Positions 13,658 through 50,431 of a stretch of DNA of 64,000 nucleotides are shown piece by piece. Source of the stretch: an uncultured Nitrospiraceae bacterium. GTDB taxonomy: Bacteria > Nitrospirota > Nitrospiria > Nitrospirales > UBA8639. Each line of letters opens with the position of its first letter. The first letter of the stretch is position 1. The stretch spans positions 505,334 through 569,333 of the forward strand of contig CAVTGT010000011.1 of the NCBI GenBank assembly GCA_963734345.1, given 5' to 3'. The notes beneath the pieces were generated by a model. The model was not told the origin of the DNA and did not search any database. It was given only the letters and a program-made list of their open reading frames with translations. The position numbers and the translations under genes are program-made.

Positions 13658-14170
13658 TTAGTCTTCGGATTCCTCCATCATAAAGGCTGCTTTTTGCCAC
13701 CACATTTCATACATGGGGATGATAAACATAATCAAAAATCCTATAACCATCAGCAGATCGCCTGTGAGCATGGTTAAGACGAATACCGGCGACACATAGG
13801 TAATCATCCAGGGTGAAGCGAGATCGAGCGTCACACCGAGAAATGAAATCCATGTAGTCATGACCTTTAGTGTGGGACTGATCATCGTCAAATACAGCAC
13901 ATGCACCATAATCATGAACACCACCGGCATGGTGAATAAGTGAAAGTGAGTCGTCTCCGACAGTTGTCCGAAGGACATGGGTTCACCGAATGTCGCATCC
14001 GACCCTCGATAATGTTCTGCAAGACCTTTTGGACTTAATTCCGTCATGCTGTGCGCCCAGAAGAACGTAAAGACAAAACCGATGAGCATTAAAAGGAGAA
14101 ACCAGGTATACACGAGGCGAATGTGGCGGTCGGTATCACGTAAAAGAAATCGTTTATTAAAATTTCGCAT
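13658..14170 (-). CDS. 4-TM membrane protein with conserved-looking His residues
   Basis: Four hydrophobic helices carrying WAH, HFH and VH histidines. An internal ATG was chosen so the gene starts 16 nt after the upstream gene's stop codon. Confidence 0.6.
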   Translation of the reverse strand: MRNFNKRFLLRDTDRHIRLVYTWFLLLMLIGFVFTFFWAHSMTELSPKGLAEHYRGSDATFGEPMSFGQLSETTHFHLFTMPVVFMIMVHVLYLTMISPTLKVMTTWISFLGVTLDLASPWMITYVSPVFVLTMLTGDLLMVIGFLIMFIIPMYEMWWQKAAFMMEESED

Positions 14171-30435: not shown

Positions 30436-30575
30436 TCTTCAACGAACCACAGGTAGTTCAATGTGCGATGGTCGATTGAGTGTGTGCCAGATTTCCCATG
30501 TTGGTGGCGGGCCATCCAAGTTCTGGAAATGGCCTTGTTTAAATTGATAGGACGTGGAATGAAACTCGACTAGCA
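30436..30575 (-). repeat. diverged duplicate of the 3' end of the hydrolase gene (partner at 32207-32385)
   Basis: Translates in frame to VEFHSTSYQFKQGHFQNLDGPPPTWEIWHTLNRPSHIELPVVR*. The gene's own end reads ..TSYQFKQGH[13 aa]FQALDGPAPTWEIWHTPNQPSQIELPVVR*. Confidence 0.75.
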
Positions 30576-30667
30576 GGGGTTTTAGGTCAGTCAGGTCTCC
30601 CAACCTCATATCAAGACATTTCGTCGCGGGCCGTGGCGATCCCTTTCCGCGTCTTATGCGTCAAGGC

Positions 30668-31211: not shown

Positions 31212-31838
31212 ATGAAACCGATCCGCTATCTAGGAGGAGTTGCGTTAGTTTTCGTGTTGGGCTGTCAGGGCATGCCTACGGTGACGAGGACCGGGGACGT
31301 CAAAGACATCATGATTGGGGATAGTCTGACGTCAGGCTATATCGCTGTCGGTCCAGGCGATGAAGTTCGATGGATCAACAAAAGGGCCGCACCTGTGCAA
31401 ATCGTTTTTCTCGACCCTGAGTGGGACAAGCAGTTGTCATGCAAGAATAATTTCGGCGGGTGGATGACCCGCAGCGACACAGCCCAACTGGCCACGAACG
31501 AAACCGCCAGCGTCTGTTTCCGGGATGCCGGCACGTTCCGGTATACCGTCAGGATGGAATCAGACAGGGCGAGTGGTAACCTCAATGTTCCGGGAGTCGT
31601 TAAGGTTGGCGGGCAGGGCGGCCAGGCCGTTGGTCAAACAAGTGAACAGAACCTTGGCCGAACCAGTGATCAACCCAGTGATCCAACAAGTAGCCCTGCT
31701 AGTCATCAACTCAGTGATCCGACAGGTGGCGGTATCAGTGAGCAACCCAGTGGTCCAACAAGTGGTCCAACAAGTGGTCCAACAGGCTCAACGTCGACCA
31801 CCACCACCACTACGACGACCATGCCTGCTCAGAAGTGA
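31212..31838 (+). CDS. lipoprotein with a cupredoxin-like beta-sandwich and a Ser/Thr/Pro-rich repetitive tail
   Basis: Lipobox VLGC. GDEVRWINK..GTFRYTV pattern with no obvious Cu ligands. The tail reads SGPTSGPTSGPTGSTSTTTTTTTT. Confidence 0.6.
   Translation: MKPIRYLGGVALVFVLGCQGMPTVTRTGDVKDIMIGDSLTSGYIAVGPGDEVRWINKRAAPVQIVFLDPEWDKQLSCKNNFGGWMTRSDTAQLATNETASVCFRDAGTFRYTVRMESDRASGNLNVPGVVKVGGQGGQAVGQTSEQNLGRTSDQPSDPTSSPASHQLSDPTGGGISEQPSGPTSGPTSGPTGSTSTTTTTTTTMPAQK
31749..31784 (+). repeat. perfect 12-nt tandem repeat x3 (AGTGGTCCAACA) inside the coding sequence
   Basis: Read directly from the sequence. It is followed by an ACC/ACG poly-Thr tract to about 31820. Confidence 0.9.
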
Positions 31839-32210
31839 ATGCGGTATTGAGAACAATTGAGGGCAGATTCCGATGGAACTGGGAGAGAGGAAATGTAGCA
31901 ATGGAGACAGAGTATGCCGCCATTGAAGGTTCTCCGTGACAGGGAGTGTTAAAACAACTCCACCGCGAAAAGAGATTAGGGGTTTTTGTTGGAGCACCTT
32001 GCCATGAGCTGCGGCATGGCGTGGTTGCTCCCCTGTCTCATTAGAATTCCTCCAAGGTGATCTTCTTTCCGGGACTGGTTGTGTCCGATGTAGTCGTTCG
32101 CATATCCATCAAATATGAATCGTTTGGCAAATTGAAGCCCGGTGCAAGGTTGGCTGGGCTCAGATCGTTCGTTCCACTTAAGATGACAAATCGATAAGAC
32201 TAATGCAGCT

Positions 32211-34170
32211 TCACCGAACGACGGGCAGTTCAATCTGGGATGGTTGATTTGGTGTGTGCCAGATTTCCCATGTTGGTGCCGGGCCATCTAATGCCTGGAA
32301 ATGATCTTTGTCGGCTCCCGCCAGGGCAATCCGGATGCGATGACCCTGTTTGAATTGATAGGACGTAGGAAGTAACTCGACTATTAGTGGCACCACTTCA
32401 CCGGGGATAAGCGGGGCGGCATCAGCACGGCGGAAGGTGTGAATGGGCAGAGCACGCGATGGGTTTTCGATGGCCTCGGTCGATTGTCTGCGCCGATGGA
32501 TGGCCCGCAACTCGCCTTCCGTGACGTAATGCACGTCTCCTTCAGGGGTGACATCTTCCAAATACACAAACAGGGTCGTATCCGGCGTGGTGGAAGAAAG
32601 ATAGACAGTGGCCACCGGATGTCCTGTGACTTCGATGTGCTTCTGATAGCGGCTCCGAGGTATACACCAACAACTCCTGATCTCGTTCTTTCCGGTCGGG
32701 GTAGGGATCTTTCAGAGAAATTCCCACCAACGTGTCCCACCGGGTTTGCCTGCCGGTTCCTGTGTTTGGATTGACCTGGTACCGATCGGGGATGTACTCC
32801 GCCGGGGGCGGCTTCATTCCTAACAGGCCTTCTTGTTGGAAATACATCGAACGGGGAGAAGACTCAGGTGGCCAGCGAGTCGAGGTTTTCCATTGTTCCT
32901 CGCCCATTGTGTAATAGCGGATCGGTGGATCGTTCTGGCTGCCGTTGGCCACGCCTTTCAGGTGAAGATCGAAAAATTTGAGGAGTTCCGCCGCATGGTC
33001 GAATTGTGCCGGCCCAAGCGCATAGGGACTGATCCGGCGTTTCCCGCCATGATCCCATGGCCCGAGCATGAGGCGGTGAGTCGGCTGCTGATAGTGGAGA
33101 TAGCGATGGATGGCAGCCAATGGATACCCCCCGTCGAACCACCCGCTATAGCTGTAGATGGCTGCGCCTGACTTGGCAATCTCGTCCGCATAGGTTTGGG
33201 GGCTGAGGACATCGATATTGGCGGCCTGCCGTGATGGAGGAGGATCATCCCGAAAATCAATCCCGGAGGCTTCCCGATAGGGACTCCAATTGGTCTCGTG
33301 TTCCTGTAAGGCGAGGGCCAAAAGGTGCTGACCGGTATCCCCATCGACCGGCCGCACTCCACGCACGAAGAGATTGGCGGTCCATCCGGCGTGCGGTAAT
33401 CGGTTGTGGTCAAGCCGATGCGTAATCGCACTCCAGGTTTCTGTAAACCAGTTGAGATGGATGCCACCCGGAAAGATAATTTCGGAATAGAGATCAAATC
33501 CTGAATACATCGGGGCGATTGCTTTGACGGCCGGATGCTGATTGACCAACAACATTTCCGCCGTTCCACCGCTATAGGAAATACCCATGGCGCCGACATT
33601 TCCGTTTGACCAGGGTTGGGCAATAATCCAGTCCACAATTTCAGCCCCGTCTTGAATTTCCTTCGGGGAATAGGCGATCGGGCGTGTTCCGAATGAGGCG
33701 CCGGAGCCACGCACATCCACATCCACCCACGCATAGCCCTGTTGAAGAAACCGTTTCGCATACGATCCCATGAGCCCCCGTGGTCCATCCTCCTTGAAGA
33801 GGGAGACCAGCCATCGATATTCGATCGCCCGCCAATACCGGGTTTGATGAAGGATCGTGGGAATCGTTTGGCCTGCCTTCAGTCCGTCGGGGAGATAGAG
33901 ATCCACCGCAATCTTGACCCCGTCCCGCATCGTGAGATACTGCGAAGTACGGTGAAATTTCCCGTCGGGCTCAACAACGCTGATAGCCGAAGATGGCGGA
34001 CTGGCCGCCGCCGGGTCAGACTGCTCAACAGTATTTGGCGCACAACCCGTGAAGAAAGGGAGTGCCAGCCCGAGGAGCATGAGGAAAGCCCATAAACGGA
34101 AAAGTCCCGGCGTGGGGAGAGGGGAGAAACGGCTGGCAGTTCTAAAACGGAGATTGGTTCGTCTGAACAT
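32211..34170 (-). pseudogene. CocE/NonD-family (X-Pro dipeptidyl-peptidase-like) alpha/beta hydrolase, frameshifted near 32633-32650
   Basis: ORFs 32542-34170 and 32211-32615 join as ..TSEPLSE|HIEVTGHPVATVYLSSTTPD... Contains GISYSGG (GxSxG). Confidence 0.75.
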
Positions 34171-35219: not shown

Positions 35220-36145
35220 ATGGCCTCATCCAATAAAAAAGTCATTTACGCGGCGTTAATCGGCAATAGCCTAATTGCCTTCACCAAATTTGCGGCTTCG
35301 GCATTGACGGGAAGTTCCGTGATGTTGGCCGAAGGCATTCATTCTCTGGTGGACACGGGCAATCAAGGGCTCTTGCTCTATGGACTTCATCGTGCCAAAC
35401 GACCAGCCGATGAGCGGTATCCCTTCGGGTATGGCAAGGAGATCTATTTTTGGAGTTTTGCTGTGGCCATTCTGGTCTTTGCCCTCGGTGCCGGAATTTC
35501 CTTGTATGAAGGCGTGTTGCACATTATTAAGCCGGAGCCGATTACCAATCCCATGGTCAACTATGTGGTGTTGACTCTCTCCCTCATATTTGAGGGTGGG
35601 GCCTGGTACATGGCTTTCCGGGAATTTTCCGGAGGGCCAAGGGAAAGTGGTCGTATTTGGAGGCGGTCCAACGGGGAAAAGATCCGACAATTTTTATGGT
35701 GCTCTTCGAAGATTCGGCTGCGGTGCTGGGGTTGGCGGTGGCCTTTATTGGCATTTGGCTGGGACAGGTCACCGGTATTGTCTATTTTGACGGCATCGCG
35801 ACCTGTATCATCGGATTGATATTGGCCGCGATCGCGATGTGGCTGGCATTTGAAACAAAAGGGTTGTTAATCGGGGAAAGCGCCAATAGGGAAGTGGTCC
35901 AGAGCATTCGCGACATGGCCAGACAACTTCCCGGGGTCATGCATGTGAATGAAGTGCTTACCATGCACATGGGGCCGGAATTTATCCTGGTGAATCTGAG
36001 TGTGGAATTTGAAGATCGAGTCACGTCCGAAGAGTTGGAGCGCTGTGTGGCCAAATTGGATAAGGATATTAAAGTGAAGCATCCTCTCGTGAAACGGATC
36101 TTTGTGGAAGCCGAAGCCCGGCGTGTCTCCAAGCTTCCGGAATAA
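35220..36145 (+). pseudogene. cation diffusion facilitator (CDF) transporter, frameshifted at the T-run 35625-35628
   Basis: ORFs 35220-35819 and 35657-36145 join as ..MAFREF|RRAKGKWSYLEAVQRGKDPTIFMVLFEDSAA... Contains the HSLVDTGNQ motif. One extra T would restore the frame. Confidence 0.8.
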
Positions 36146-36214: not shown

Positions 36215-37797
36215 ATGGGCGAAACTCGTGTTGATTTGCTTCATCTGTTGGAAGATTTGCGTGATGCCTATCCGGGCGCGCTCGAAGAAACCATTCTCAC
36301 GGAAATCGTGGCCAATTCTTTGGATTCCGGAGCCAGCCGGATCATGATGGAGGCAAATCCATCAGAAGGCACGCTGATGGTGAGGGATAACGGATCGGGC
36401 ATGCAGCGGAAGGATTTGGCCCGCTATCATGACATTGCCTCCAGTACCAAACGACGTGGCCAAGGCATCGGCTTTGCCGGCGTTGGCATCAAACTCGGGT
36501 TGTTGGTGTGTCGGGAGGTGCTGACGGAGACTCAGCGAGGTCAGACTCATGTCTCGACGACGTGGCATTTATCGTCGCGGCACCGGGCTCCCTGGAAATG
36601 GGTGCCTCCAATAGGCATGGTGATCCAGCAGGGAACCGCAGTCCGTCTTAGCCTTCAAAATGTTCTCTCCCCACTGTTGGATCAGGGGTTTTTAGGCGGA
36701 GTTGTCTCCAGACATTTTCAACCGTTGCTGGATCCCACGTTTTCCACCATCCTGCATTCCCACTATTCGAAAGGCGTGGTCTTTGAAATTAATGGAATAG
36801 AGCTGACCTCTCAACGGTTTGAGGCTCCGGTCCACGCGCCTTTGCAAATTCGTCTGTTGCGAAAACGGAAACCCTCGGCGGTGGGATATCTGGTGCGAAC
36901 CGAACATCCTCTGCCCGATGATCTTCAAGGATTAGCCATCAGTACTTTCGGCAAAGTTATCAAGTCAGGGTGGGATTGGTTGGGTGTCACCCCACAGGCT
37001 CGTGAATGCATTTCCGGCCTGATTGAAGTTCCGGATCTTGCCGCAAGTCTGACGCTGAATAAAGGAGATTTTATTCGAGTGGGGGCACGAGGCGCGACGT
37101 ATTTGGCCTACCGGAAGGCTATCCAGGAAGCCGTTCAACGGCACCTTTCAGAATGGGGAGTGGGGGATAGTCCGGTCGAAGAAACGCCGCCCCGCCAAAT
37201 CCGTCCGCTGGAGCGGGACCTTGAGCGAGTACTGGAAGACCTCTCCGATCTCTTTCCGCTCCTGGGTTCCTTGGTGGAACATCGGAAGGGTGGGCAGAAA
37301 CGGTTGCCGTTGGGCATGCCGGGATCGGTTCAAGACCTGCGTGCCGTCATGACCACTGGAGAGGCGACCCGGAAGTCGGACGGTGAAGAAGAATTAGTCG
37401 TCCACGCCCCGGCTGAGGACAGGGGTGAGGAGACATCGGATGAACCTGGCGAGCCGGAAGAAGAGGCGTCGGTGGTGTCTGATCTTTTGTTGCCGGACCG
37501 TGGCAGTCCCAGGCGTCCGGCCCGTTTTGGGCTCGGTATTCAATTTGAAGATCGGGAAGGTGATCAGGAAATTGGACGGTTGGTGGAATCAACCGTATGG
37601 GTGAATCGCGTTCATCCAGCCTATCAACGAGCGGTGGCGACGCGGTCGGTGGGCTATCATATCGCCCTGGCGGTGGGATTGGCCTTGGCGCCGCTGGCCG
37701 TGGAGCCTGCTCAAACGAGCATGCCTTTCTCACCGCCTTTCTCTCCTGTTGGGGGGAGGCCAGCCTTCCTAAAAAATCAAAGAAACGCAAGCGGTAA
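36215..37797 (+). pseudogene. GHKL (HATPase_c_3 / MORC-Hsp90-like) ATPase, frameshifted 28 codons before its stop
   Basis: N box EIVANSLDSGA, G1 box RDNGSGM, G2 box GQGIGFAGVGIK. The frame breaks at the A-run 37713-37715. The alternative frame gives ..EHAFLTAFLSCWGEASLPKKSKKRKR*, ending at 37797. Confidence 0.7.
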
Positions 37798-37968
37798 AAG
37801 ATTGTCGGTGGTAAGTGGCGGGATAAAGGGTTGTTTAATCCTGTTCTGTATTCTCGATTTCCATTACCACCGGACAATGATCAGAAAGGTGTCGATAGGC
37901 GAGAGGATACTCACCACGAATGCGTTGACAGGTGGCGACGGCACAGTATCCAGTGACGACTGTATCAG
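37723..37968. repeat. copy 1 of a ~245-bp diverged direct repeat (GHKL 3' end + spacer + remnant of the EEP nuclease 3' end)
   Basis: On the minus strand, 37845-37968 translates to ..VVTGYCAVATCQRIRGEYPLAYRHLSDHCPVVMEIENTEQD*. The intact gene reads ..TVTGYCAVAGCQRIRGKYPLAYRQLSDHCPVVLEIENTDKD*. Confidence 0.8.
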
Positions 37969-37980
37969 CAATGTGCGGAC

Positions 37981-38670
37981 ATGGGAAACGACGGTTGTCA
38001 GCTTGCCATGGGTCAGCTCAACGAGTTCGGCGAGGGCGTACCGAAGAACGAGAAACAAGCGGCAAGCTGGTATCGAAAATCTGCGGATCAAGGCAATGCC
38101 ATCGGACAAAAAACGCTTGGACTTCTTTATGAACTCGGAAAGGGCGTGCCGGAAAACTGGACCGAAGCGGCTCGGCTATACGCCAAGGGCGCGGAGAAAT
38201 TTCAAGATTCGGCGTTTGCCTTAGGGCGCATGTATGAATTTGACATGGCCGTTCCGCAAAACCGCGCGGTCGCGATCCAATGGTTTAAGAAAGCCGCCGA
38301 TATGGGACATCCCAAGGGAGCCTATTGGCCCCGTTGGTTGAACGATTACAGCAACTGCATCGGCTTTCGAGACCAACAGGAGCAGAACGCGATCCGGGGC
38401 CTTCGCTGTCCGGCCGATCCGGTCGGCGTCATCTTTCGCAACAGCCGCGAGCGGGCGGCCTACATAGAGCAGAAGGCCAAGGAGTTTGACGCGATCGAAG
38501 CGCAGGCGGCTGCGGCCCAGGCGGCGAGGGTGGGGCGCAAAATAACTATGAATGTAACAGCGCCGGAGGAAATTGGACGGCGGATAGGCAAGCAACATTT
38601 GGAGGCCGCTGCAATTAGCCGAAGCGTGAAGCGGAAGCGCTTGTCTGTAGTGGGCCGCGTGTCTTCGTAG
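37981..38670 (+). CDS. Sel1-repeat (SLR) protein, probably 5'-truncated
   Basis: Repeats of the form ..GVPKNEKQAASWYRKSADQGNAIGQ.. with no signal peptide. It begins immediately after the repeat junction. Confidence 0.6.
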   Translation: MGNDGCQLAMGQLNEFGEGVPKNEKQAASWYRKSADQGNAIGQKTLGLLYELGKGVPENWTEAARLYAKGAEKFQDSAFALGRMYEFDMAVPQNRAVAIQWFKKAADMGHPKGAYWPRWLNDYSNCIGFRDQQEQNAIRGLRCPADPVGVIFRNSRERAAYIEQKAKEFDAIEAQAAAAQAARVGRKITMNVTAPEEIGRRIGKQHLEAAAISRSVKRKRLSVVGRVSS

Positions 38671-38888
38671 AGAATCGGCTTTCTTGAGCCCTTCCGCGAA
38701 AATTTAGCGTTCAGGCGATGGAGGTCAGGCCGGTTTCCGATTCCAGAAGGGCGGCAGCGGGTAGCTGCGGTCGCCATAGCCGAATTCCTCATATGCGCTC
38801 TGTAATGCGCGAGCGACGGGTAGGTGGCTGGATGTAGGTGGGAAGCTCCGGATGCGGATACTCGCCGAAAGTCATCGGTCTTGGTGGG

Positions 38889-40772
38889 TCAGTAGCGCCG
38901 CCAGCCGCCTTTGCCGCGGGTCCCGCTCTCGGTTGGACTGAACCGGCGGGAATTCTCATTCGCCGAGGCCCGATTCAGAAAGCTCCGCCAGCCATAGAGC
39001 TGCTGCTGATCAGAGATCTTCTCGAAACACTTCACCGCCGCCGCCGCAACGCGATGAGTTTTCCACAGATCGTCACGCGGACGCTGATAGGCATTGGCGC
39101 CGCCGGTCCGGGCGCGGCCGTCATAGTCCAACAGCTTTCGGAAATGCTCTGCTGCCTTGTCGCACTGTCCAAGGCCCGCCAGCTCGACCGCCGCAAGAGC
39201 GCGGTTGGTGCGCATGAGCTCGCCGAAGGTCGGCGGTACCTGCCGGCGGTTCGCCGCCAGGTTCGGAAGCGGGAACATGGCTGTGTGAACGTGTTCCTGG
39301 AGTGCAGCATCCTTGAACCCGGATTCGACCGTTACATTTTGCAGGTAGAGGTCCGCCGCCTGCTGCGGATGTTGCGCGCTGACGAGTTCCGCGATGCGAC
39401 TGCGTAGCTCAATCGCCCGCCCGGTTTCGCTGACGTACCAGTACCCGGTATTGCGCAGCCATGAGCCTCCGCGCTGCCTGGCGTGAGCCTCTTCCAAGGC
39501 ATAGGCCGCCCGATAGAGTGCCAGGGCGGCGTCGCTCTTGCCCTGGGCCTCCGCGATCACGGCCATATACGCAATTGTGCGGGCGTCACCGGGATCGACG
39601 GATACCGCCTTGTCGAGAAAGCCCGATGCCTCGGTCTCCCGGCCCATGGCAATAAGATCCCACGCCCAATCCAACTGCGTCGCCGCCGTCGTGTGCTCCA
39701 GATTGCGTCCGACGGTTGCGTGCTCCATATACGCCTCAACCTGGTTTTGTTCGGAATAGGCATTGGCGAGGCTGTAGTGGTAGTGGCGCGTGGCAGGATC
39801 AAGCTTCACCGCCTTCTCCCACGACTTCGCGGCTGCCGGATAGTCTTTTGCAGCGAACGCCATCGAACCGACGAAGTCGTGGCTGGCGGCATCGTTGGAT
39901 AACGTCGTCAACGCCTTCCTGATATAACCAGCTGCAATCCCGTATAGATTGCCGGCCTGCGCATCATAGTTATTGGCCTTCGCCAGGTCCGCCGGCGACG
40001 GCCTCGCCACGTACTCGTAGACAACATTGCCGTACTTTTCCTCCCATCGGCGAGTCATAAGCAGGCTCATCGCCGCCGCCAGCCGCTGCGCCGCGGCAGC
40101 TCGCATGACGTCGCGCATCAGCTTGAGAACCTCGCGGTCGGTGGTCCCGGTCGCAATGGCGCGCCGCAAATACCGTTCGGCATTCGCCCACATATCGACG
40201 CGGATCTCCATCCGTGCCAGTCCGGCCAGGGAGGGTACGTGATTCGGATTGAGCGTCAGCGCCTGGGTGAATATTTGTCGGGCCTGTTGGAGCTCGGCTT
40301 CCTTGAGAGCCTTTCCTTGCTGGCGGTAAGAGATTATGTAGCGTGTCGGCTCAACGGAATCGCCACGAGCGTCGATCTCATCGATGAGAAACCTCCCGAC
40401 CGCCGCCAGCCGATCGGTATCTTTAGGATGTGTACCCGCCGCCCACATGAGTTGGCGCTTCGTTTCCGAATAAGTTTCGTCGCCAAGCCGGCGCTCGGAG
40501 TTGGACGCCTTGAGGAGCTTCACCGCTGTCTCCACGAGCTGATCCACGGACTTGCCGACTCGAGCTGACTTGAGCAGGTCGGCGTGGAGTTGCGACGCCG
40601 GCTCCTTGGGAACAGTTCCCAGCGCAGTCTCGATCCGTTGCTGGGAGTTTCCAATCACCTTGAATTTATGCTTGCGGGTCGAGTTGGCGCGCGATCTCCA
40701 GATCGTGTTGGGCCTGTCGAGCTGCGCCCATCTCCGCCGCGCTGACGGCCCGAACCACGTAGCCCTCGACAA
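38889..40772 (-). CDS. TPR-repeat protein in the GC-rich block (start uncertain; may be fused to 40666-41082)
   Basis: Many TPR-like A..Y..AL.LDP units. There is no credible start codon near the 5' end of this frame. Confidence 0.55.
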   Translation of the reverse strand: MSRATWFGPSARRRWAQLDRPNTIWRSRANSTRKHKFKVIGNSQQRIETALGTVPKEPASQLHADLLKSARVGKSVDQLVETAVKLLKASNSERRLGDETYSETKRQLMWAAGTHPKDTDRLAAVGRFLIDEIDARGDSVEPTRYIISYRQQGKALKEAELQQARQIFTQALTLNPNHVPSLAGLARMEIRVDMWANAERYLRRAIATGTTDREVLKLMRDVMRAAAAQRLAAAMSLLMTRRWEEKYGNVVYEYVARPSPADLAKANNYDAQAGNLYGIAAGYIRKALTTLSNDAASHDFVGSMAFAAKDYPAAAKSWEKAVKLDPATRHYHYSLANAYSEQNQVEAYMEHATVGRNLEHTTAATQLDWAWDLIAMGRETEASGFLDKAVSVDPGDARTIAYMAVIAEAQGKSDAALALYRAAYALEEAHARQRGGSWLRNTGYWYVSETGRAIELRSRIAELVSAQHPQQAADLYLQNVTVESGFKDAALQEHVHTAMFPLPNLAANRRQVPPTFGELMRTNRALAAVELAGLGQCDKAAEHFRKLLDYDGRARTGGANAYQRPRDDLWKTHRVAAAAVKCFEKISDQQQLYGWRSFLNRASANENSRRFSPTESGTRGKGGWRRY

Positions 40773-41082
40773 ATGAGGGCTTCCAACTCAGCACGATCGA
40801 CATCTCCTGCCGCGCTTGTTCGTGCAAGCCCATCCCGGACATCGCGATGGCATAGCAGGCACGCGCCGTCATGTCGGTCGCAGATGTGTCGACGATCGGC
40901 TGAAGGGCGGCATAGGCCTGCGTAAACTCGTGCTTCAGCGCGAGATCGCAACCGCGTTTGGCCTGGCTGTCGCTGGCGGGGTTCAGGGTTGTCGCCGGGG
41001 GGACGATTTCAGCGGCACCTGCATGGCCTGCGATGCCCACGACGATCATCGCCAGGATTGCTGTGATGTGCAGCATGGACAC
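40666..41082 (-). CDS. signal-peptide TPR protein, or the N-terminal part of the downstream TPR gene
   Basis: Signal peptide (..GIAGHAGAAE) and TPR units. It overlaps the next ORF by about 100 nt in another frame. Confidence 0.5.
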   Translation of the reverse strand: MSMLHITAILAMIVVGIAGHAGAAEIVPPATTLNPASDSQAKRGCDLALKHEFTQAYAALQPIVDTSATDMTARACYAIAMSGMGLHEQARQEMSIVLSWKPSFVEGYVVRAVSAAEMGAARQAQHDLEIARQLDPQA

Positions 41083-41344
41083 CTCCGGATCGACCGGTCA
41101 GCGATCTTACAGGCTCTCACCAAAAGAGACAATCGAGAATAGGAATTTTAAAGGGGCTTTTTGGCGCGAAACGCCGCTCCTATTCAACTACCCGCGTCGA
41201 TTATGAGTTCGAACGAGAACACAGTGGGGCTTTTTGGCCTAGACATTAGATTGATCCACACTTAATTTGGCCATGACTGACATACTCCTCTAAAAAGAAT
41301 CTTTGATTCATTTTAAGGAACAATTCACCTAGCTATGATTTACT

Positions 41345-41659
41345 TGAAATTAAGGTACTACGGCAAAGAGTACAAAGGCACCGATCAACATGCATTTGTC
41401 AAAACCTGCCAGCAACATGGTATCGGCCAGAAATTTACTCGCGTTATATAGACCTCAAACCAATGGTAAAGCCGAACGCGTTATTCGTACTTTAATGGAC
41501 GGCTGGCATAACCAGCATACCTTCAAAGATGCTCAACACCGACATATTGAACCGATCCGCTTTATTAACTTCTATAACAATGCTAAACCTCATAAAGATT
41601 TGAATAATAAAGATTTGAATAACTCTACCACTTTATGCAATACTCTAAACCTTTTTTGA
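41345..41659 (+). mobile_element. IS481-like transposase 3' fragment (rve core), frameshifted
   Basis: ..YGKEYKGTDQHAFVKTCQQHGIGQKFTR is in one frame and YRPQTNGKAERVIRTL.. in another. The DNA is AT-rich, and a 15-nt tandem duplication lies at 41586-41615. Confidence 0.6.
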
Positions 41660-41714
41660 TCTATCAAACTGTAAACAACCCGAGTAATTCTTTCACATTA
41701 TTTAATATATTGAT

Positions 41715-42557
41715 ATGAATATGACGGCTAAAACACATCATCTTGTTAAGATTGCAAAACATCTACACTTGGAGGCTTGGCTGTACTCCTTTATCTATCG
41801 AGCATTCAGACAAATCAGTAAAAAGAATGGGGTACGCATTACAACCAATAACTATGGTTATTACCCTACCAAGATCGATGCCCATGAGAAATATCAGCTG
41901 CAACTGTATGATGAGTATGTCAATCTTTTGGAAGATGAAAATATAGAACAAGTATTAGAAATTGGTTGCGGTGCTGGTGGTGGCCTCAGGCACATGCAAT
42001 CACGTCTACCTCAAACAAATTTTACGGGTTTGGATTGTTGTAAGGAGGCGGTAAAGACTTGTAAATATTTTTTCGGTGAGCAACAAAAAAACATCAATCT
42101 TTACAATAATATCGAAGACATATTTACGTATGACAAAAAATTTGATGCCGTCATGAGTGTTGAAACAGGCCTATACAGAAATCCAGGTATTTTTGGCGAT
42201 ATTCATAAGCTGTTAAATGACAATGGTATTTTTATCTACTACGATAATACTAATTTTAGTAAATCAGATATGGTCATCAGATCTATAGAATCTCATGGTT
42301 TTAAAATAGATAGCATGAGAGACATTACTGAAAACGTATTTAAAGCATGTGAACACGACACCCCCAGACGGTTGGAAATTGTAAAAAAATATCTACCGAA
42401 ATATTTAAGACCATTTAATAGCGAGATACTACGTTATTTGTGCGTAAAAGATAGTCCACGCTATATCAATTTTGGTACCGGTAAAAAAAGAGCTTTTATG
42501 CTGAAAGCAAGGAAGCTCAGTACTCCTGTGGATCGTTCATCTACAGTTTTCGCCTGA
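41715..42557 (+). CDS. class I SAM-dependent methyltransferase (AT-rich, foreign composition)
   Basis: Motif I VLEIGCGAGGGL. A spot count gives 16/60 G+C at 41701-41760. Confidence 0.75.
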   Translation: MNMTAKTHHLVKIAKHLHLEAWLYSFIYRAFRQISKKNGVRITTNNYGYYPTKIDAHEKYQLQLYDEYVNLLEDENIEQVLEIGCGAGGGLRHMQSRLPQTNFTGLDCCKEAVKTCKYFFGEQQKNINLYNNIEDIFTYDKKFDAVMSVETGLYRNPGIFGDIHKLLNDNGIFIYYDNTNFSKSDMVIRSIESHGFKIDSMRDITENVFKACEHDTPRRLEIVKKYLPKYLRPFNSEILRYLCVKDSPRYINFGTGKKRAFMLKARKLSTPVDRSSTVFA

Positions 42558-42736
42558 ATACTGTAAACAACGCTAGAATTTCTTACAAATGATGCCTTTT
42601 GTTTGGATATAAGCTTTAATGTTTCGTCGCGTTCTTTCATACTGATAGCCTGAAGCATTGCATTACGGCGACGCGTATCACGATTATCATCCTTGGTCGC
42701 ATCAATAATCCATTGTTCTATCTCCACGATAATACA

Positions 42737-43150
42737 AATCTGGTCTTCCCCCGGTTTCACGGACAGGTTAAAGAAGACTTTTGAGAGTATTGCTCCATAA
42801 AATTTCTTGGGGCCAGTCCCTGAGTACAGGAGTGGCTCCGTCGGTGGTTATAAAACCGCTCGATGTAATCAAACACATCAGCTCGGGCTTTCGCCCGAGT
42901 TCCGTACTGCCGTCGGTGAACCCGTTCGCGTTTCAATAAGCCAAAGAAACTCTCCGCCACCGCATTGTCATAACAGTTCCCCACGCCGCTCATGCTACTC
43001 ACAATCCCATGGGCCTGCAGGAAGGCTTGAAACTCCTGTGCGGTATACTGTGTGCCTCGGTCCGAATGGAGGATCACCGTCTCCGGACTCCGTCGTTGCC
43101 ACACGGCCATCGCCCAATCAGCGGTCTGGGAAATGACAGACATCCGCCTC
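42737..43150 (-). mobile_element. IS3-family transposase OrfB fragment, 5'-truncated, no OrfA
   Basis: ..HSDRGTQYTAQEF..SMSGVGNCYDNAVAESFFGLLKRE..YIERFYNHRRSHS.. (DDE/rve core). Homology starts near 43145 and the stop is at 42757. Confidence 0.75.
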
Positions 43151-43193
43151 CTCGAACAATTTAGGGTGTCTACAATGAATAAACAAAAATGGC

Positions 43194-43877
43194 CTAGGAA
43201 AGCAGAGCCCACATGAAATAGGTACCGAATCCGATAGCGAGGAATCCGGCACTCACTTTCAGATTGTGATGCCATGATTGAGATACAAAAACAAACGGAA
43301 GACTGATCAGCCCACTCATCAGGAGCATGCCCCCAATCGAGCCAATACCGAATAATAGAATATAGATCATGCCCATTTCCATGGATGGCATAGTCGTCAG
43401 TACCGCAAGGCTCAAGGCGGCACTGCCTGCCATTCCATGCACAAAGCCCACTAACAAGACTTTGACGCGAGAACCGCGCGGATGATGGTAATGGCTGGCA
43501 TGATCCTGACCATGAACATGAATATGTGAATGGGTCATTTCCTCATGATGATGTTCATGAAGGTGAGCCGTCCATGGCTGGAGGGTCCTCCACAGAAGGT
43601 GAACACCCAAAGCCACAATCATGGCTCCGACCATCACATCCATATGGGCTGCCATTTGTTCCGGAATCGTCCACTTGAGACTTAACACCAGATAGCCGAC
43701 GAGTGCTAAGGCGCACGTATGTCCGACTCCCCAGATCGCTCCTAAAAAAGCCGAACGACGGATATCCCGTGATTCTGAAGCCAACGTTCCCATGGCAATG
43801 AGGTGGTCCGGGTCGAGCGCGTGCGTCATGCCCAACGTTAAGCCCAGCAACCATGAGGTGATGATTAAATGATCCAT
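43194..43877 (-). CDS. nickel/cobalt transporter (NicO/RcnA/UreH-like)
   Basis: HALDPDH signature, His-rich central loop (HLHEHHHEEMTHSHIHVHGQDHASHYHH), about 6 TM helices. Confidence 0.7.
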   Translation of the reverse strand: MDHLIITSWLLGLTLGMTHALDPDHLIAMGTLASESRDIRRSAFLGAIWGVGHTCALALVGYLVLSLKWTIPEQMAAHMDVMVGAMIVALGVHLLWRTLQPWTAHLHEHHHEEMTHSHIHVHGQDHASHYHHPRGSRVKVLLVGFVHGMAGSAALSLAVLTTMPSMEMGMIYILLFGIGSIGGMLLMSGLISLPFVFVSQSWHHNLKVSAGFLAIGFGTYFMWALLS

Positions 43878-44292
43878 GTGAAAATCTGACCTGGATTTTA
43901 TATTTTGTCCAGCCCGGTACTCTTGACTGCTCTCATCATGAAATACGAAGGATCTGAGGAATGGCCCTCTTCAGTTCTCAAAGGTCTGCTGTGGATTCAT
44001 CAATCGGGCGTTGACCCATTACATCATCCTCCATATCACTATTCCAGCAAACGGTTTCTATCAGATTTGACCCCTCGGTCCGCTCATCATAATCTAACGC
44101 CCTATGAAAAATCTTAGGGTGTTTACGTTATTGGGATCGATAACACACAAACCTTAATAAAGGGGAACATCCCAATCTCTGAAATGCTCATTTTGCCGGG
44201 GACATCATGCAAAATGGAGCGAAGCCGAGATTCTGATCACAGAATATTGGCGGTGGCCTCTGGCGCGGATGGGCAACTCCTTAATGCTGCGA

Positions 44293-45153
44293 TCATTGCG
44301 AGCCGCCACGGCGTTGAATCTCCTGTAGGTCGTTCTTCAATTGCTCCAGGTCTCGCTCCTGCTTGTGGACCTTTTCCTGCAGGGCACGAAGGGCGGGGTC
44401 TTCCGACACGGATTCCCCTTGGACGGGAACGGTCTTCTGGTTATTTGGTGTAATAGCAGTCTCGCGGCTGTGGGTAGGCGAAGGTGTTTCCGTCTGTCGG
44501 ATCAGGGAGTGGGCTGGCTGTTCACGGGCCTCTTGCAACGTTTCGAGAAGCGGATAATTGATCGCCAGGGTAACCTCGTCAGGGTGGCTCGGCTTCTGCG
44601 GAGACTTGTCGGGCCTAAGGGTTTCCTCAGGTGCGAAAAGCACGGTCTGATTACCAAGGCCTGTCGGGTCGGGGGCCTGACGGTCATCCACGTAAACAAA
44701 ATTTATTCCCTCGTGTTTCTGTGTGAAGTGGGTGATGGTTAGAAAAAGCAGGTCTTCGTGGAGAGAGAGAGTCCCCGCCGTCATCCTTGAACCGTATTCC
44801 CAAGGATAGATCCGTTGAAAGACTATCTGCTCTTCCGGGGTTGCCTGCGACAAGGCGGAGAGAATGTGCGGAGTCAGGAGCTCCACGTCTTCATCGGAGA
44901 AAATTCTCTTGGGCCCTTGTTGCCCACTGAGATGTTTGTCGAGTTCGGCTTTTAGCTTTTGCACGCGCAACCCCCGTAGCGCTCCGTGGATCACGGTCTG
45001 CGAGAGAGTAGCTGGATGGGAGGCGCGAAAGGAGGCTTGCGGGACCCACTCCAGATAAACGCGGCTGGTCTCATTCTGGTGAAGGGGAGTGCGTATGCCG
45101 GATCCGGTACAGCCAAGAAGGAATGCACAAGCGACAACGCCTGCCAAGGTCAT
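44293..45153 (-). CDS. lipoprotein, unknown function
   Basis: Lipobox LLGC after the internal ATG (MTLAGVVACAFLLGC). Confidence 0.6.
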   Translation of the reverse strand: MTLAGVVACAFLLGCTGSGIRTPLHQNETSRVYLEWVPQASFRASHPATLSQTVIHGALRGLRVQKLKAELDKHLSGQQGPKRIFSDEDVELLTPHILSALSQATPEEQIVFQRIYPWEYGSRMTAGTLSLHEDLLFLTITHFTQKHEGINFVYVDDRQAPDPTGLGNQTVLFAPEETLRPDKSPQKPSHPDEVTLAINYPLLETLQEAREQPAHSLIRQTETPSPTHSRETAITPNNQKTVPVQGESVSEDPALRALQEKVHKQERDLEQLKNDLQEIQRRGGSQ

Positions 45154-45392
45154 GCGACTCACATCCACAGCGCTGACTCTCACGTTTTCTCCTTGTTAGC
45201 ATCATCATCGGCGTTGGGTCGATTGGCGCGCAAATATACCATAAGCCACGGGGACACAACCATCAGGCTTGTCCCCCCATAATTTATATGCCGGAGAGCG
45301 GAAGTTTGATTTGTTCAATTATATTGTTGACAATTTTTTTGGCTTTTCACATAGTACCGGCCTCGTATGAAACCCAGCTGAATTAATCCGAT

Positions 45393-46628
45393 ATGAAACA
45401 AATTCTTATGAGCTTGGATTCGAAGATTGATTATCTGCGGATGATTAAGTCGTGCGCCATTCTCGTCATGTTCATCGCGATCGTGGTGAACGCGCCGGTT
45501 GTGCACGGAGCAGGAAAGATTGAAATCGACGACACAAAGTGGATTAGTGTGGGTCTTGGTCTGAGGACGAGTTTTTTCACGCAGGAAGATGCGGCGTCGA
45601 ACGGATCGAATTGGAGTAATAACTTCCAATTGGACAATCTTCGTCTGTATGTGAATGGGCAGATTCATCAATATATCAAGGTTGAATTTAACACGGAATG
45701 TAACAATTGCGTCTCCTCCAATAATATACAGGGCGGAACGATAATCGTCCTTGACGCCATCGGGAAGTTTGAATTCAACCAGTACTTCAATATCTGGGCA
45801 GGGCGCCAGTTGGTTCCACAACACCGGGGAGAACTCTCCGGCCCGTTTTTTCAAAGTACCTTTGACTTTGTTGAAACGCCGTTTTACACCTCGGATTTCT
45901 CCGGGTCTATCGGACAGGGTGGGCGGTTTGGCCGCGATGACGGTGTGAACCTTTGGGGAGCCTTAACTCCGGATAGGAGATTGACCTATGTCGTGGGTAT
46001 CTTTGGAGGGCATGGTGGCGCGTCGAATCAGTCGGACAATCTTCTCTATGCCGGACGGATCAGTTACAACTTCCTCAATGTCGAAAAGAATCCCGGTTAT
46101 TACACCAGCAGCACGTATTACGGAAAGGGCGGCGATATATTGACCGCGGCCTATGTGATCCAATATCAAAACGATGGCGCCGGCACGCAGGCCTCCCCTT
46201 CGACCTTTTACGGAATGAATGGGGATCTGTTGTTCGAAAAGGTTCTGCCCGACAAGGGCGTTCTGACCCTGGAGGGTGAACTCAAGTATTTCAATCCCAA
46301 CCTGAGCGCCCAGGCGTTGGCAGACCCCAATTGTTTCTGCCTGTTCTCCGGCGTTTCCTGGATGGCAACCGGACTATATCTTTTTCCCCAAAAAGTCGGG
46401 ATAGGGCAATTTCAGCCTTTCGTGCGTTATGTGGACACCAATCCTAATGAGAGCTCCTCTCGATACCTGGTCGAGGGAGGCCTGAACTATGTGATTGATG
46501 GACATAACGCAAGGATTTCGCTGTTTTATCAATATGGCGATTTTTTAACCAAAGGCAGGACCTATACGCCCGGTGTCAGTGGCGATGCGGTCAGCGCTGT
46601 GGGGTTGGGTCTTCAACTCCAACTGTGA
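45393..46628 (+). CDS. outer-membrane porin, possibly a short-chain amide/urea (FmdC-like) porin
   Basis: Signal peptide (..APVVHGAG; alternative start at 45441), beta-barrel pattern. A urea transporter remnant lies downstream. Confidence 0.55.
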   Translation: MKQILMSLDSKIDYLRMIKSCAILVMFIAIVVNAPVVHGAGKIEIDDTKWISVGLGLRTSFFTQEDAASNGSNWSNNFQLDNLRLYVNGQIHQYIKVEFNTECNNCVSSNNIQGGTIIVLDAIGKFEFNQYFNIWAGRQLVPQHRGELSGPFFQSTFDFVETPFYTSDFSGSIGQGGRFGRDDGVNLWGALTPDRRLTYVVGIFGGHGGASNQSDNLLYAGRISYNFLNVEKNPGYYTSSTYYGKGGDILTAAYVIQYQNDGAGTQASPSTFYGMNGDLLFEKVLPDKGVLTLEGELKYFNPNLSAQALADPNCFCLFSGVSWMATGLYLFPQKVGIGQFQPFVRYVDTNPNESSSRYLVEGGLNYVIDGHNARISLFYQYGDFLTKGRTYTPGVSGDAVSAVGLGLQLQL

Positions 46629-46643
46629 GGCAGGGGATCTGAC

Positions 46644-46823
46644 ATGGCAACAGAGTCCATCAGGAATGATCGGCAACCGTTATGGGATCCGGGAAATTTC
46701 TTCCGGATCGTCTTGCGAGGGCTTGGTCAAGTGATGTTCCAGGGCCATGCAGGCGCATCTGATGCAATTCATCACACATACGCTCGTCCCCAAGACGAGC
46801 CTGGGTGTTTCGCCGGGTGGTAA
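46644..46823 (+). pseudogene. urea transporter (UT family) N-terminal remnant
   Basis: The 59-codon ORF MATESIRNDRQPLWDPGNFFRIVLRGLGQVMFQ.. matches the UT N-terminal LRGxGQVMFQ motif, then diverges to a stop codon. Confidence 0.4.
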
Positions 46824-46856
46824 TTGCGGCTTCGTCGATTCAAAAGGTAATTCCGC

Positions 46857-47098
46857 GCCTTTAGACGGCCTTCCTATCCTGTTGGGGGGAGGCCAGCCTT
46901 CCTAAGAAATCGAAAAAACGCCGGAGCTAACATGTCGTTTGAAAGAAAGAGAATGGCTCGGCGAGGAGGTTCCTAATCTTTATCTGTATTCTCAATTTCC
47001 AACACCACCGGACAATGATCCGATAGTTGACGGTAGGCGAGCGGATACTTTCCACGGATCCGTTGGCAGCCGGCGACGGCGCAATATCCGGTGACCGT
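46857..47098. repeat. copy 2 of the ~245-bp diverged direct repeat (remnant of the GHKL 3' end + spacer + the real EEP 3' end)
   Basis: 46871-46930 translates to TAFLSCWGEASLPKKSKKRRS*, matching the GHKL tail at the first 19 aa (TAFLSCWGEASLPKKSKKR), with mostly synonymous nucleotide changes. Confidence 0.8.
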
Positions 47099-48476: not shown

Positions 48477-50160
48477 ATGAGCCATTCTTCCGTCAATCTC
48501 GATATCGCCAATCGCATCCCTTTGCAACCCATCGCCGACGTGGCCCGGGAGAAACTCGGGCTTGATCCGAGTCAGATCGAATTGTACGGCAGATATAAGG
48601 CCAAGATCCCGCTAGTGTCCCTCCCGCCCTTTCCGACCAAACCGGAGAGCAAGCTCATTCTGGTGACCGCCATGAGCCCAACGACGGCTGGCGAAGGCAA
48701 GACCACGACGCTCATCGGTCTGGTGGATGGGTTGAATAAGATCGGCGAAAAGGCTGTGGCTGCGATTCGGGAGCCGAGCCTGGGGCCGTGTTTCGGGATG
48801 AAGGGCGGAGGCTGTGGGGGAGGGTATGCCCAGGTGGTCCCCATGACCGACATCAATTTGCATTTTACCGGAGATTTTCACGCCATTACGTCCGCTCACA
48901 ATTTGTTGGCGGCTCTGGTGGATAATCATTTGTATTGGGGACAGGAACCTCACATCGATCCCCGCCGGGTGACGTGGGGACGGGTGCTGGATGTCAATGA
49001 CCGGTCATTGCGATCTGTGGTGACCGGGCTTGGCGGAAAGGCCAACGGGTTTACCAGGGAAGGGCGGTTTGACATCACTGCCGCTTCAGAGGTCATGGCC
49101 ATTCTGTGTTTGGCGACGGACCTTCAGGACCTTCAGCAACGCGTAGGCAATATCAAAGTGGGGCGAACGGTCAACAAGGAGATGGTCTTTGCGAAGGATA
49201 TCGAGGCGGAAGGCGCCATGACCGCATTACTCAAAGAGGCTCTCAATCCCAACCTTGTGCAGACCCTGGAACATAATCCGGCGCTGGTTCATGGCGGTCC
49301 CTTCGGGAACATTGCCCATGGGTGTAGTTCGGTTGTCGCAACCAAAGCTGCTCTCACACTTGCCGACTATGTGGTGACAGAAGGAGGATTTGGAGCCGAT
49401 CTCGGTGCCGAGAAGTTTTTTGATATCAAATGCCGGCAATCAGGTCTCAAGCCGGCCTGTGCCGTGGTCGTGGGGACGATCAAGGCGTTGAAACTTCATG
49501 GTGGGGCAAACGAAAAAGAACTCGAACATGAAGACCTCAGGGCGCTCCGGCAAGGCCTGCCGAATCTGCTGCGCCATTTGGAAAACGTGAAAAAATTCGG
49601 AGTGCCTGCGGTTGTGGCCATTAATCAATTCACGAGTGATACGAAGCGGGAGTTGGAACTTGTAGAACAGGCCTGTGCGGACCATGGGGTGAAACTGGCC
49701 TTGGCCAATCATTGGGCTCAAGGTGGAGAGGGAGCCGAGTATCTGGCCGAAACCGTTCGAGATGTCATCGAAAAAGAACCCGCAAACTTTCGTGTCCTCT
49801 ATCCCGATACGACTGCCGCTTGCAGAGAAAGTGCGAACTATTGCCAAAGAAATCTACCGGGCTGAGGATGTGGAGATTCCCTCCACCGTCCAGGCCCGTT
49901 TTACGGAACTTGAAAAAAATGGGTTTGGTCACTTCCCCGTATGTATGGCCAAGACCCAATACAGCTTTTCTGCCGATCCCACCAAAAAAGGGGCCCCGAC
50001 CGGATTCACGCTTCCGGTTCGCGAAGTTCGCCTCGCGATGGGCGCGGGATTTGTGGTGGTCATTACCGGGGATATGATGACGATGCCGGGCTTGCCGCGG
50101 GTGCCGGCGGCCGAATCGATCGGGGTTGACGAAAAAGGGAATATTGTGGGGTTGTTTTGA
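48477..50160 (+). pseudogene. fhs: formate-tetrahydrofolate ligase, frameshifted near 49806-49815
   Basis: Contains TAGEGKTTT and [16 protein letters not shown]. ORFs 48468-49865 and 49723-50160 join as ..FRVLYPDT|[20 protein letters not shown]... Confidence 0.85.
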
Positions 50161-50431
50161 AAAAGGGAGCGTGATTTTTAGTGGCAGTGGCAGGCTACTG
50201 TTCATGGAATATTTTTGTCATCTGTGTGAGAAGGAAGACCCTCTTCGCTGCTGAAGCGACGCTCAATTCACATAAAGAGACGGGTTCGTTCTTCACGTCG
50301 TGAGGTCAGAAATTTCCGTAAAAAGCTGTGGAAATCTTGATTTCTTCGTCCCTCCTGTTGCTATTCCACCTTTGAACCCCCTCTCTCCTGCCTCGCAGAA
50401 TCACCTTGTGGTACATTGGCAGATGGCAACC

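Follow-up and report, generated by a model that had tools for sequence, protein, structure and literature searches.

A decaying, probably imported island between two diverged copies of the GHKL-EEP gene junction in an uncultured Nitrospiraceae bacterium

In Escherichia coli, the element e14 (and phage 21) in icd supplies a substitute gene end, and the displaced end persists as icdC, a C-terminal pseudogene; the icd and icdC copies are diverged, mostly at synonymous positions, and are direct repeats able to recombine (PMC13626634, citing Hill et al. 1989). A related anatomy is found in a 64,000-nt stretch of DNA from an uncultured Nitrospiraceae bacterium (contig CAVTGT010000011.1 of assembly GCA_963734345.1, positions 505,334 to 569,333), hereafter the window. 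Here, a GHKL-type ATPase gene and a convergent gene of the endonuclease/exonuclease/phosphatase (EEP) family are separated by an island, which lies between direct repeats of ~230 nt; each copy runs from a GHKL-ATPase tail across a spacer into the EEP-nuclease gene, of which it holds the last 122 nt. It is fairly probable that a horizontally acquired island, now decaying, entered by a single reciprocal crossover of the Campbell type between the resident junction and an incoming junction copy.

The e14/icd/icdC arrangement is the closest described case. Both elements sit in the 3' end of a protein gene, bring a substitute tail and leave the displaced original on their far side. By contrast, e14 encodes its own site-specific recombination and excises upon SOS induction, whereas the window island is devoid of a recombinase; the window repeat also spans the spacer into a convergent neighbor gene, and the cargo consists of truncated chromosomal genes instead of phage genes. 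A looser parallel is provided by tRNA-gene islands and tycheposons, where integrations that are old or followed one another can be recognized by partial tRNA copies, in some cases tandemly arranged, and where the islands contain degenerate remnants (bioRxiv 10.1101/2020.12.28.424599). They share with this locus the recurrent use of a gene 3' end as a hotspot, and their tandem case is resembled by arrays at another window gene, PepS15. Unlike in tycheposons, the targets here are protein genes, the repeats are 120-240 nt long and 78-89% identical, no integrase was found and the 64-kb window contains no tRNA or tmRNA gene.

Homologous integration of the Campbell type is familiar from suicide plasmids and from specialized transducing phages that carry host DNA, where a single crossover duplicates the homologous segment; resident and incoming sequence are combined in each product, which is the native/imported pattern seen here. 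Minimal mobile elements of Neisseria are cassettes without mobility genes that lie between conserved genes and are exchanged via flanking homology. In homology-facilitated illegitimate recombination, one-sided homology combined with an illegitimate join could account for truncated cargo genes. To our knowledge, both of these systems normally replace or delete resident sequence, with no duplication and no paired gene-end repeats. The window locus has the anatomy of an island integrated at a gene 3' end and no detectable recombinase: it works like such an island but is not a demonstrated member of the integrase-borne family. It is an ordinary degraded island, a known kind of scar and a good example of one, with a well-resolved history: the nearest relatives have an empty site, the island exists in three strain variants, and one of its ends is shared by a second species. 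The locus is a clean, datable case of island entry and decay in uncultured nitrite oxidizers.

The duplicated GHKL-EEP junction

Homologs of the GHKL protein, 526-535 aa long with the C-terminus ...EHAFLTAFLSCWGEASLPKKSKKRKR, come from Nitrospirales, as do those of the EEP-family nuclease or phosphatase to its right; PADLOC and NCBIfam gave no informative name for the GHKL protein, the EEP protein or the 296-aa protein of the island. In the complete genome CP058931 (L001; compared genomes and loci are cited by such labels), the gene order is YdjM, CDF, GHKL, EEP on the opposite strand, formate-tetrahydrofolate ligase (FTHFS), hemerythrin and UvrB, with 33 nt between the GHKL and EEP stop codons. 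A genome-collection scan combined with tblastn found the two genes tail to tail in ~25 Nitrospirales genomes; the empty-site spacer measures 30-130 nt in most of them and ~280 nt in two. Among these genomes are the closest relatives of the window genome, L002, L003, L096 and L006, with flanks 84-93% identical. A sequence-only reading of the window had proposed that GHKL and EEP originally converged; the comparison confirms this ancestral tail-to-tail state. The GHKL gene itself is variably present: in L090 (11315-11398) and L091 it is absent, CDF and EEP converge, and the 85-nt spacer between them holds no GHKL remnant.

A repeat search of the window matches 37732-37797 to 46865-46930 (66 nt, 85% identical) and 37836-37957 to 46974-47095 (122 nt, 82% identical); both blocks have the same order and orientation, and the copies lie 9133-9138 nt apart. 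When copy 1 is used as a blastn query against the whole 64-kb window, copy 2 is found at E = 4.9e-42, with otherwise only chance-level matches. The direct repeats described in the sequence-only reading are real, although their right ends, placed there at 37968 and 47098, fall at 37957 and 47095; the repeats start at ~37721 and 46857 if one 1-nt indel is allowed. Translation reproduces the peptides given in that reading: the GHKL tails end in TAFLSCWGEASLPKKSKKRKR and ...KKRRS, and the EEP parts in ..GYCAVATCQRIRGEYPLAYRHLSDHCPVVMEIENTEQD and ..AGCQRIRGKYPLAYRQLSDHCPVVLEIENTDKD, all followed by a stop codon. Both remnants had been taken to be in frame, but the GHKL remnant of copy 2 is so for only 21 codons, with a stop codon ahead of them. 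The repeat search detected no terminal inverted repeats, as a transposon or insertion sequence (IS) would have, at the insert ends; what flanks the insert is host sequence in two diverged copies of ~230 nt, with the GHKL and EEP ends both duplicated and EEP intact, and the IS fragments are internal and secondary. No terminator-like or promoter-like site is apparent at the copy 1 junction, and no Rfam family was found in the 28-50 kb part of the window.

Differences between the copies are mostly synonymous, as had been noted for the GHKL part. The EEP parts differ at 22 nt, 15 synonymous and 7 non-synonymous (pS 0.54, pN 0.08); in the GHKL parts, 6 codons differ synonymously and 2 amino acids are changed. 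The spacers are barely alignable, next to coding parts that are 82-85% identical, and identical runs of at least 12 nt are limited to a 29-mer (the core) and a 17-mer from 37866. The predominance of synonymous divergence implies that the imported pieces evolved inside functional genes elsewhere rather than decaying in place, and the remnants diverged under purifying selection. Substitutions at otherwise invariant EEP residues (CAVAGC to CAVATC) indicate some later decay of the imported piece.

An exact-sequence look-up of the window EEP protein gave no contig, but the other proteins of its 90% cluster are encoded on long ENA contigs. Two of these, L095 and L097, are assemblies of the same species; their flanks are 98-99.5% identical to the window in nucleotide sequence, and they carry the same copy 1, with the same Sel1-repeat gene fragment and TPR gene beside it, and pass into copy 2 and EEP in the same way. 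Both lack window 42741-46893 and join at an ATC microhomology; their right core has been deleted between two GCCTTCCTA 9-mers, and a 58-nt deletion is present at 46789-46846. In L095, an extra IS256 and an IS4-like element (2.84 kb) sit at 41237/41251. The island is real, fixed in the species and decaying.

A segment-wise comparison with relatives separates the two copies. Up to 37743, the GHKL body is most similar to the nearest relative, L002 (112/123), whereas the tail end and spacer 1 of copy 1 (37773-37837) match L008 at 43/65 and L015 at 41/65 positions and L002 at only 20/65. The EEP remnant of copy 1 matches L015 at 107/120, compared with 96-100/120 for L003, L096 and L006. In copy 2, the tail beyond the core together with spacer 2 matches L002 (57/70), and the tail contains CGCCGG (Arg-Arg) codons that are otherwise confined to L002, L003 and L096, the nearest relatives; its EEP end matches L006 at 115/120, and the next 120 nt beyond 47095 still at 119/120. 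The inner right arm (46857-46876) is too short for lineage assignment. These affinities identify copy 2 as the lineage's own junction and copy 1, rightward from ~37773, as an import from another Nitrospirales lineage of the L015 type. The earlier proposal that one junction copy came from another lineage fits both these affinities and divergence within functional genes, with the roles reversed: the copy 1 GHKL tail, called real in that reading, is the imported one, and the copy 2 "remnant" the original.

The change from native to imported sequence lies within or at the 29-nt core, inside the GHKL tail; a search for a short identical core had been suggested as a check, and the one found sits at this switch. 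Both window cores contain a GGG glycine codon that occurs in 0 of 20 relatives, and this shared codon shows that the two copies have exchanged sequence. The core with its unique GGG was considered as the footprint of the crossover and then downgraded, since the left core of L095 and L097 reads TCCAGTTGGGGCGAGG instead of the TCCTGTTGGGGGGAGG of the window. The 29-nt identity may stem from the original crossover, from later short-patch gene conversion in the window, or from an imported patch in the sister strains.

A second species shares one end of the island. In L008 (a 1.58-Mb contig; flanks ~83% identical to the window), GHKL is followed by a 125-nt EEP remnant, a truncated Sel1 gene, other cargo, a short GHKL remnant and EEP. 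The Sel1 fragment has an identical breakpoint and is 98% identical to that of the window over ~390 nt, so at least the Sel1 end has moved between the species recently. The right copy of L008 is native-like, resembling L001 and L063, its closest relatives, both with empty sites; its EEP remnant is of the L015 type (14/120 differences). Similarity between the window and L008 changes ~25-35 nt inside the EEP-homologous stretch, and the junction-derived part, the putative landing pad, seems to have a separate history, either older or repeatedly overwritten.

The L008 island also contains ~180-nt direct repeats (12111-12292 and 13975-14161, 85-89% identical) around a 1.87-kb segment with an IS256-family transposase-like fragment, recognized by eye only, and a 393-aa open reading frame (ORF) without a Pfam match. 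These repeats truncate the Sel1 fragment, and a portion of the repeat is similar to L087 6502-6564, a sequence that recurs at the boundary of the low-GC block of the window.

Table 1. Features of the junction copies, the island and the flanking genes (window coordinates)
Feature	Position	Strand	Remarks
GHKL-type ATPase gene (HATPase_c_3)	36215-37797	+	Pfam, homologs, frame analysis
Repeat copy 1	37721-37957	.	repeat search, blastn, segment comparison
Copy 1 left arm	37721-37743		L002-like left of core (112/123)
Copy 1 core, 29 nt	37744-37772
Copy 1 imported GHKL tail end with stop	37773-37797		L015/L008-type right of core
Copy 1 spacer 1	37798-37834
Copy 1 EEP 3' remnant, 40 codons and stop	37835-37957	-
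29-nt core	37744-37772 and 46877-46905		sequence TCCTGTTGGGGGGAGGCCAGCCTTCCTAA, identical in both copies
Sel1-repeat gene, 5'-truncated	37960-38670	+	Pfam; residues ~213-431 of 431-aa gene
TPR-repeat protein gene	38889-41082	-	60-65% GC; 1-nt indel near 40668
Low-GC block, 35% GC	41243-42740	.	IS481-like fragment and methyltransferase
IS481-like transposase C-terminal fragment	41390-41659	+
Class I SAM methyltransferase	41715-42557	+
IS3-family transposase 3' fragment	42741-43104	-	Pfam rve/rve_2
Nitrospira urease locus, truncated upstream part	43105-46754	.
NicO-like transporter	43194-43877	-
296-aa protein	44293-45183	-
Porin	45393-46628	+
Urea-transporter gene, first ~110 nt	46644-46754	+
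Orphan non-coding stretch	46755-46856	.	7-bp hairpin 46782-46800; partly kept in L095, L097
Repeat copy 2	46857-47095	.	repeat search, segment comparison
Copy 2 GHKL left arm, decayed	46857-46876
Copy 2 core	46877-46905
Copy 2 lineage's own GHKL tail end with stop	46906-46930
Copy 2 spacer 2	46931-46972
Copy 2 real EEP 3' end	46973-47095	-
EEP (endonuclease/exonuclease/phosphatase) gene, intact, 437 aa	46973-48286	-

Gene-end duplications at other sites

In L033, a more distant Nitrospirae metagenome-assembled genome, a 3.7-kb island lies between GHKL and a tag-like DNA glycosylase gene and is flanked by 120-nt, 78% identical direct repeats of the tag-like gene 3' end (2115-2234, 5944-6063). 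The last ~175 nt of the PepS15 peptidase gene, the hydrolase case of the sequence-only reading, are present in three copies in L001 (3265-3437, 4995-5162, 5999-6178), in two copies in L006, L008, L063 and the window (30437-30579, 32209-32390) and in one copy in L005, L011, L023 and L096. The diverged copies are 81-87% identical to the real tail of the window; downstream of every displaced copy come a ~40-nt sequence common to all of them (TTGAGGTCAGGTCTCC..AATATCTAGAAATTT) and then small cassettes, e.g., with a HigA-like antitoxin. It looks as if cassettes had accumulated in tandem behind a protein gene. Recurrent integration at gene 3' ends, proposed earlier for this region, extends beyond the window genome: the same site in L008, the tag-like end in L033 and the two or three PepS15 tails in several genomes support it.

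Within a PepS15 cassette of the window, a 208-aa ORF (31212-31838) contains 36-nt tandem repeats at 31634-31787, in four copies with 61-73% identity to the reference copy.

Entry of the island

In the favored scenario, a conserved GHKL-EEP junction would have been split by a horizontally acquired island. The incoming DNA would have borne a junction copy of its own, derived from another Nitrospirales lineage and extending from the GHKL tail over the spacer through the terminal 122 nt of EEP, and the island would have been installed by recombination within the final ~75 nt of the GHKL gene. One reciprocal crossover would duplicate the junction: GHKL would then end in an imported tail from ~37773, and the lineage's own tail, spacer and EEP end would be pushed 9.1 kb downstream as copy 2, leaving both genes with complete ends. 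Insertions and deletions later altered the island. It is well supported that resident sequence became joined to a foreign junction copy through recombination in the GHKL tail: sequence on the outer left (to 37743) and in the right copy from 46906 is native-like and the left copy from 37773 is of the L015/L008 type, the hybrid repeats expected of Campbell-type integration. We further infer that the incoming DNA was circular, that recombination was driven by homology rather than by a lost integrase, and that the event occurred in the window lineage and not in the donor. The sequence-only reading had proposed Campbell-type integration of a circular element whose integrase is gone; the duplicated junction with its hybrid repeats agrees with this, whereas the circularity and the lost integrase were inferred. 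The locus shows that insertion can exchange a gene's terminus for a foreign one.

Several observations weigh against this scenario. The window, L008, L033, L095 and L097 yielded no integrase, integrase remnant or circular form, and homology of only ~75-85% over ~230 nt is a poor substrate for RecA. The compared segments are short (25-120 nt), so that the phylogenetic assignments rest on tens of sites. The left core of the sister strains differs at 2 core positions and 1 position just upstream, and later gene conversion is an equally possible origin of the 29-nt identity. The EEP remnants of the window and L008 match at 99/120 positions and their spacers barely align, though the adjacent Sel1 sequence is 98% identical; a simple model, in which the same element integrated twice, does not predict so divergent a left module. 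Finally, truncated genes at both ends of the cargo fit illegitimate joining as well as they fit a tidy mobile element.

A possible, though unlikely, source is an element of the e14/icd kind with an attP overlapping the GHKL 3' end and a replacement tail, whose integrase and most other parts were later lost through deletions and IS activity. Such an element is expected to leave a duplicated gene end, an intact gene, an empty site and a switch in a short identical core, and e14 is likewise flanked by icd and the icdC pseudogene (PMC13626634); gene loss is plausible in an island that is decaying and varies among strains. Yet no recombinase gene or fragment is present in the window, L008, L033, L095 and L097 islands or beside the PepS15 arrays. 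For the window island, a Pfam search of all ORFs of at least 89 aa returned neither intact nor fragmentary tyrosine or serine recombinases, only IS3 and IS481 DDE transposase fragments; six-frame inspection of the 40.7-41.7 kb gap revealed no recombinase, un-annotated gaps are all below 420 nt and none is large enough to hide one, and ORF scans of the L008 and L033 islands and of the region left of PepS15 were also negative for recombinases. The insert has no detectable integrase, as had been stated before. In addition, the GHKL, tag-like and PepS15 tails have no common core, which makes a single trans-acting recombinase unlikely, and viral contigs scanned for exact patterns of the Sel1 end and the GHKL core gave no match.

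We assign a low probability to the duplication having arisen earlier in another lineage, with the ready-made island received by a double crossover in GHKL and at or near the core of the right copy. The same left module in islands of another species (L008) would fit, as would the mosaic affinities of flanking genes, a pattern typical where homologous recombination is frequent (EEP, for example, is L006-like at its 3' end and L003-like further in). However, leaving the L002-like tail and spacer in copy 2 would require the right crossover to have occurred not in the 1.3-kb EEP gene but in a stretch of a few tens of nt at the core, and the first origin of the duplication would stay unexplained, the Campbell-type event being merely moved to the donor. 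A tandem duplication of the junction in the window genome, with divergence in place and later insertion between the copies, was rejected as very improbable: it is compatible with direct repeats in the same orientation around the insert but is contradicted by the closest relatives of the copies (L015/L008-type versus L002/L003/L006-type), by the predominance of synonymous changes in remnants that are non-coding here, and by spacers that barely align beside coding parts of high identity. An assembly chimera, named in the sequence-only reading as what could undo the repeats, has next to no probability and was ruled out. The window does contain several frame-breaking 1-2-nt indels typical of long-read consensus errors, but the two independent same-species assemblies carry the same island, with the left junction through TPR and the right junction into EEP, and L008 has the same left junction.

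The single-crossover scenario can be extended, tentatively and with considerable doubt: Nitrospirales may carry integrase-free islands or cassettes that use a host gene 3' end as a landing pad. Entry would replace the host gene terminus and push the old one downstream, and repetition of the process could build arrays. Exit via the diverged repeats could take along pieces of each host's gene end, which would explain a lineage-mosaic landing pad beside conserved cargo. The same architecture at GHKL/EEP (window species and L008), at the tag-like gene (L033) and at PepS15 tails (four other genomes), with no recombinase, is compatible with this proposal. If the missing integrase reflects a truly homology-driven entry, these loci would make it possible to test a model of how genes move among bacteria that are poor in classical mobile elements.

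Cargo and later changes

The cargo is a patchwork of truncated genes from at least four compositional or phylogenetic origins, with GC contents of 60-65% at 38.5-41.1 kb, 35% at 41.2-42.7 kb and ~50% elsewhere. At its left end, the EEP remnant is fused to the Sel1 fragment at 37957/37960 (joint sequence CCAGTGACGACTGNATCAGCAATGTG). Homology to the full-length Sel1 gene of L084, which encodes 431 aa with a signal peptide, begins exactly at 37960, so the joint is an illegitimate fusion of two truncated genes; a metagenome scan with the Sel1 fragment found three loci only, L084 among them, and none of the three is an island. The adjacent TPR gene is a single 728-aa ORF in L097.

Window positions 41135-41242 and 43105-46754 are collinear with L087 (~88%) and partly with Nitrospira sp. 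Ecomares 2.1, in which the NicO-like gene, a 300-aa gene and the porin precede a urea transporter and ureABCEFGD; the urea-transporter body and ureABCEFGD are missing from the window. Part of a urease locus has thus passed through the GHKL-EEP hotspot. The low-GC block and the IS3 fragment (41243-43104) interrupt sequence that is contiguous in L087 and consequently represent a later insertion; the start of the IS3 fragment, 42741, is the point where L095 and L097 depart from the window. With this secondary block, and with same-species strains that lack 42741-46893 or hold an extra 2.8 kb of IS sequence, the earlier view of 8.9 kb arriving in a single entry does not stand. The related view of the insert as an element from a relative holds for the foreign junction copy but not for the cargo, which is not simply one element and was assembled from truncated genes. 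The methyltransferase gene of the low-GC block is directly flanked by 34-nt direct repeats (41668-41701 and 42560-42593, 79% identical) and lies beside the IS481-like fragment.

Close to the island, 2 extra nt at 37708-37711, relative to all relatives, place the last 27 GHKL codons in another frame and create a read-through ORF of 669 aa (36215-38224). L097 shares the insertion and the 669-aa read-through, whereas L095 lacks it and is in frame. The frameshift was considered as a mark of the recombination joint and rejected, because L095 carries the same island in frame. The insertion reflects either true variation between strains or a sequencing artifact common to the window and L097; unless it is an artifact, the GHKL tail of the window strain would no longer be translated with the body. 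Other frame-breaking insertions of 1-2 nt occur in CDF (35629-35636), PepS15 (32636), TPR (40668) and FTHFS (49813). Those in CDF, TPR and FTHFS are absent from L095, which does not cover the PepS15 one, and all four are specific to the window assembly and are probably long-read consensus errors.

Farther right, the FTHFS-UvrB interval (window 50157-50423) is another variable spot. It is empty in the window, L095 and L097, and contains hemerythrin in L001 and L090, hemerythrin and a ParE/Phd pair in L093, ParE/Phd alone in L096, and a PIN-domain gene with an 82-aa ORF in L092.

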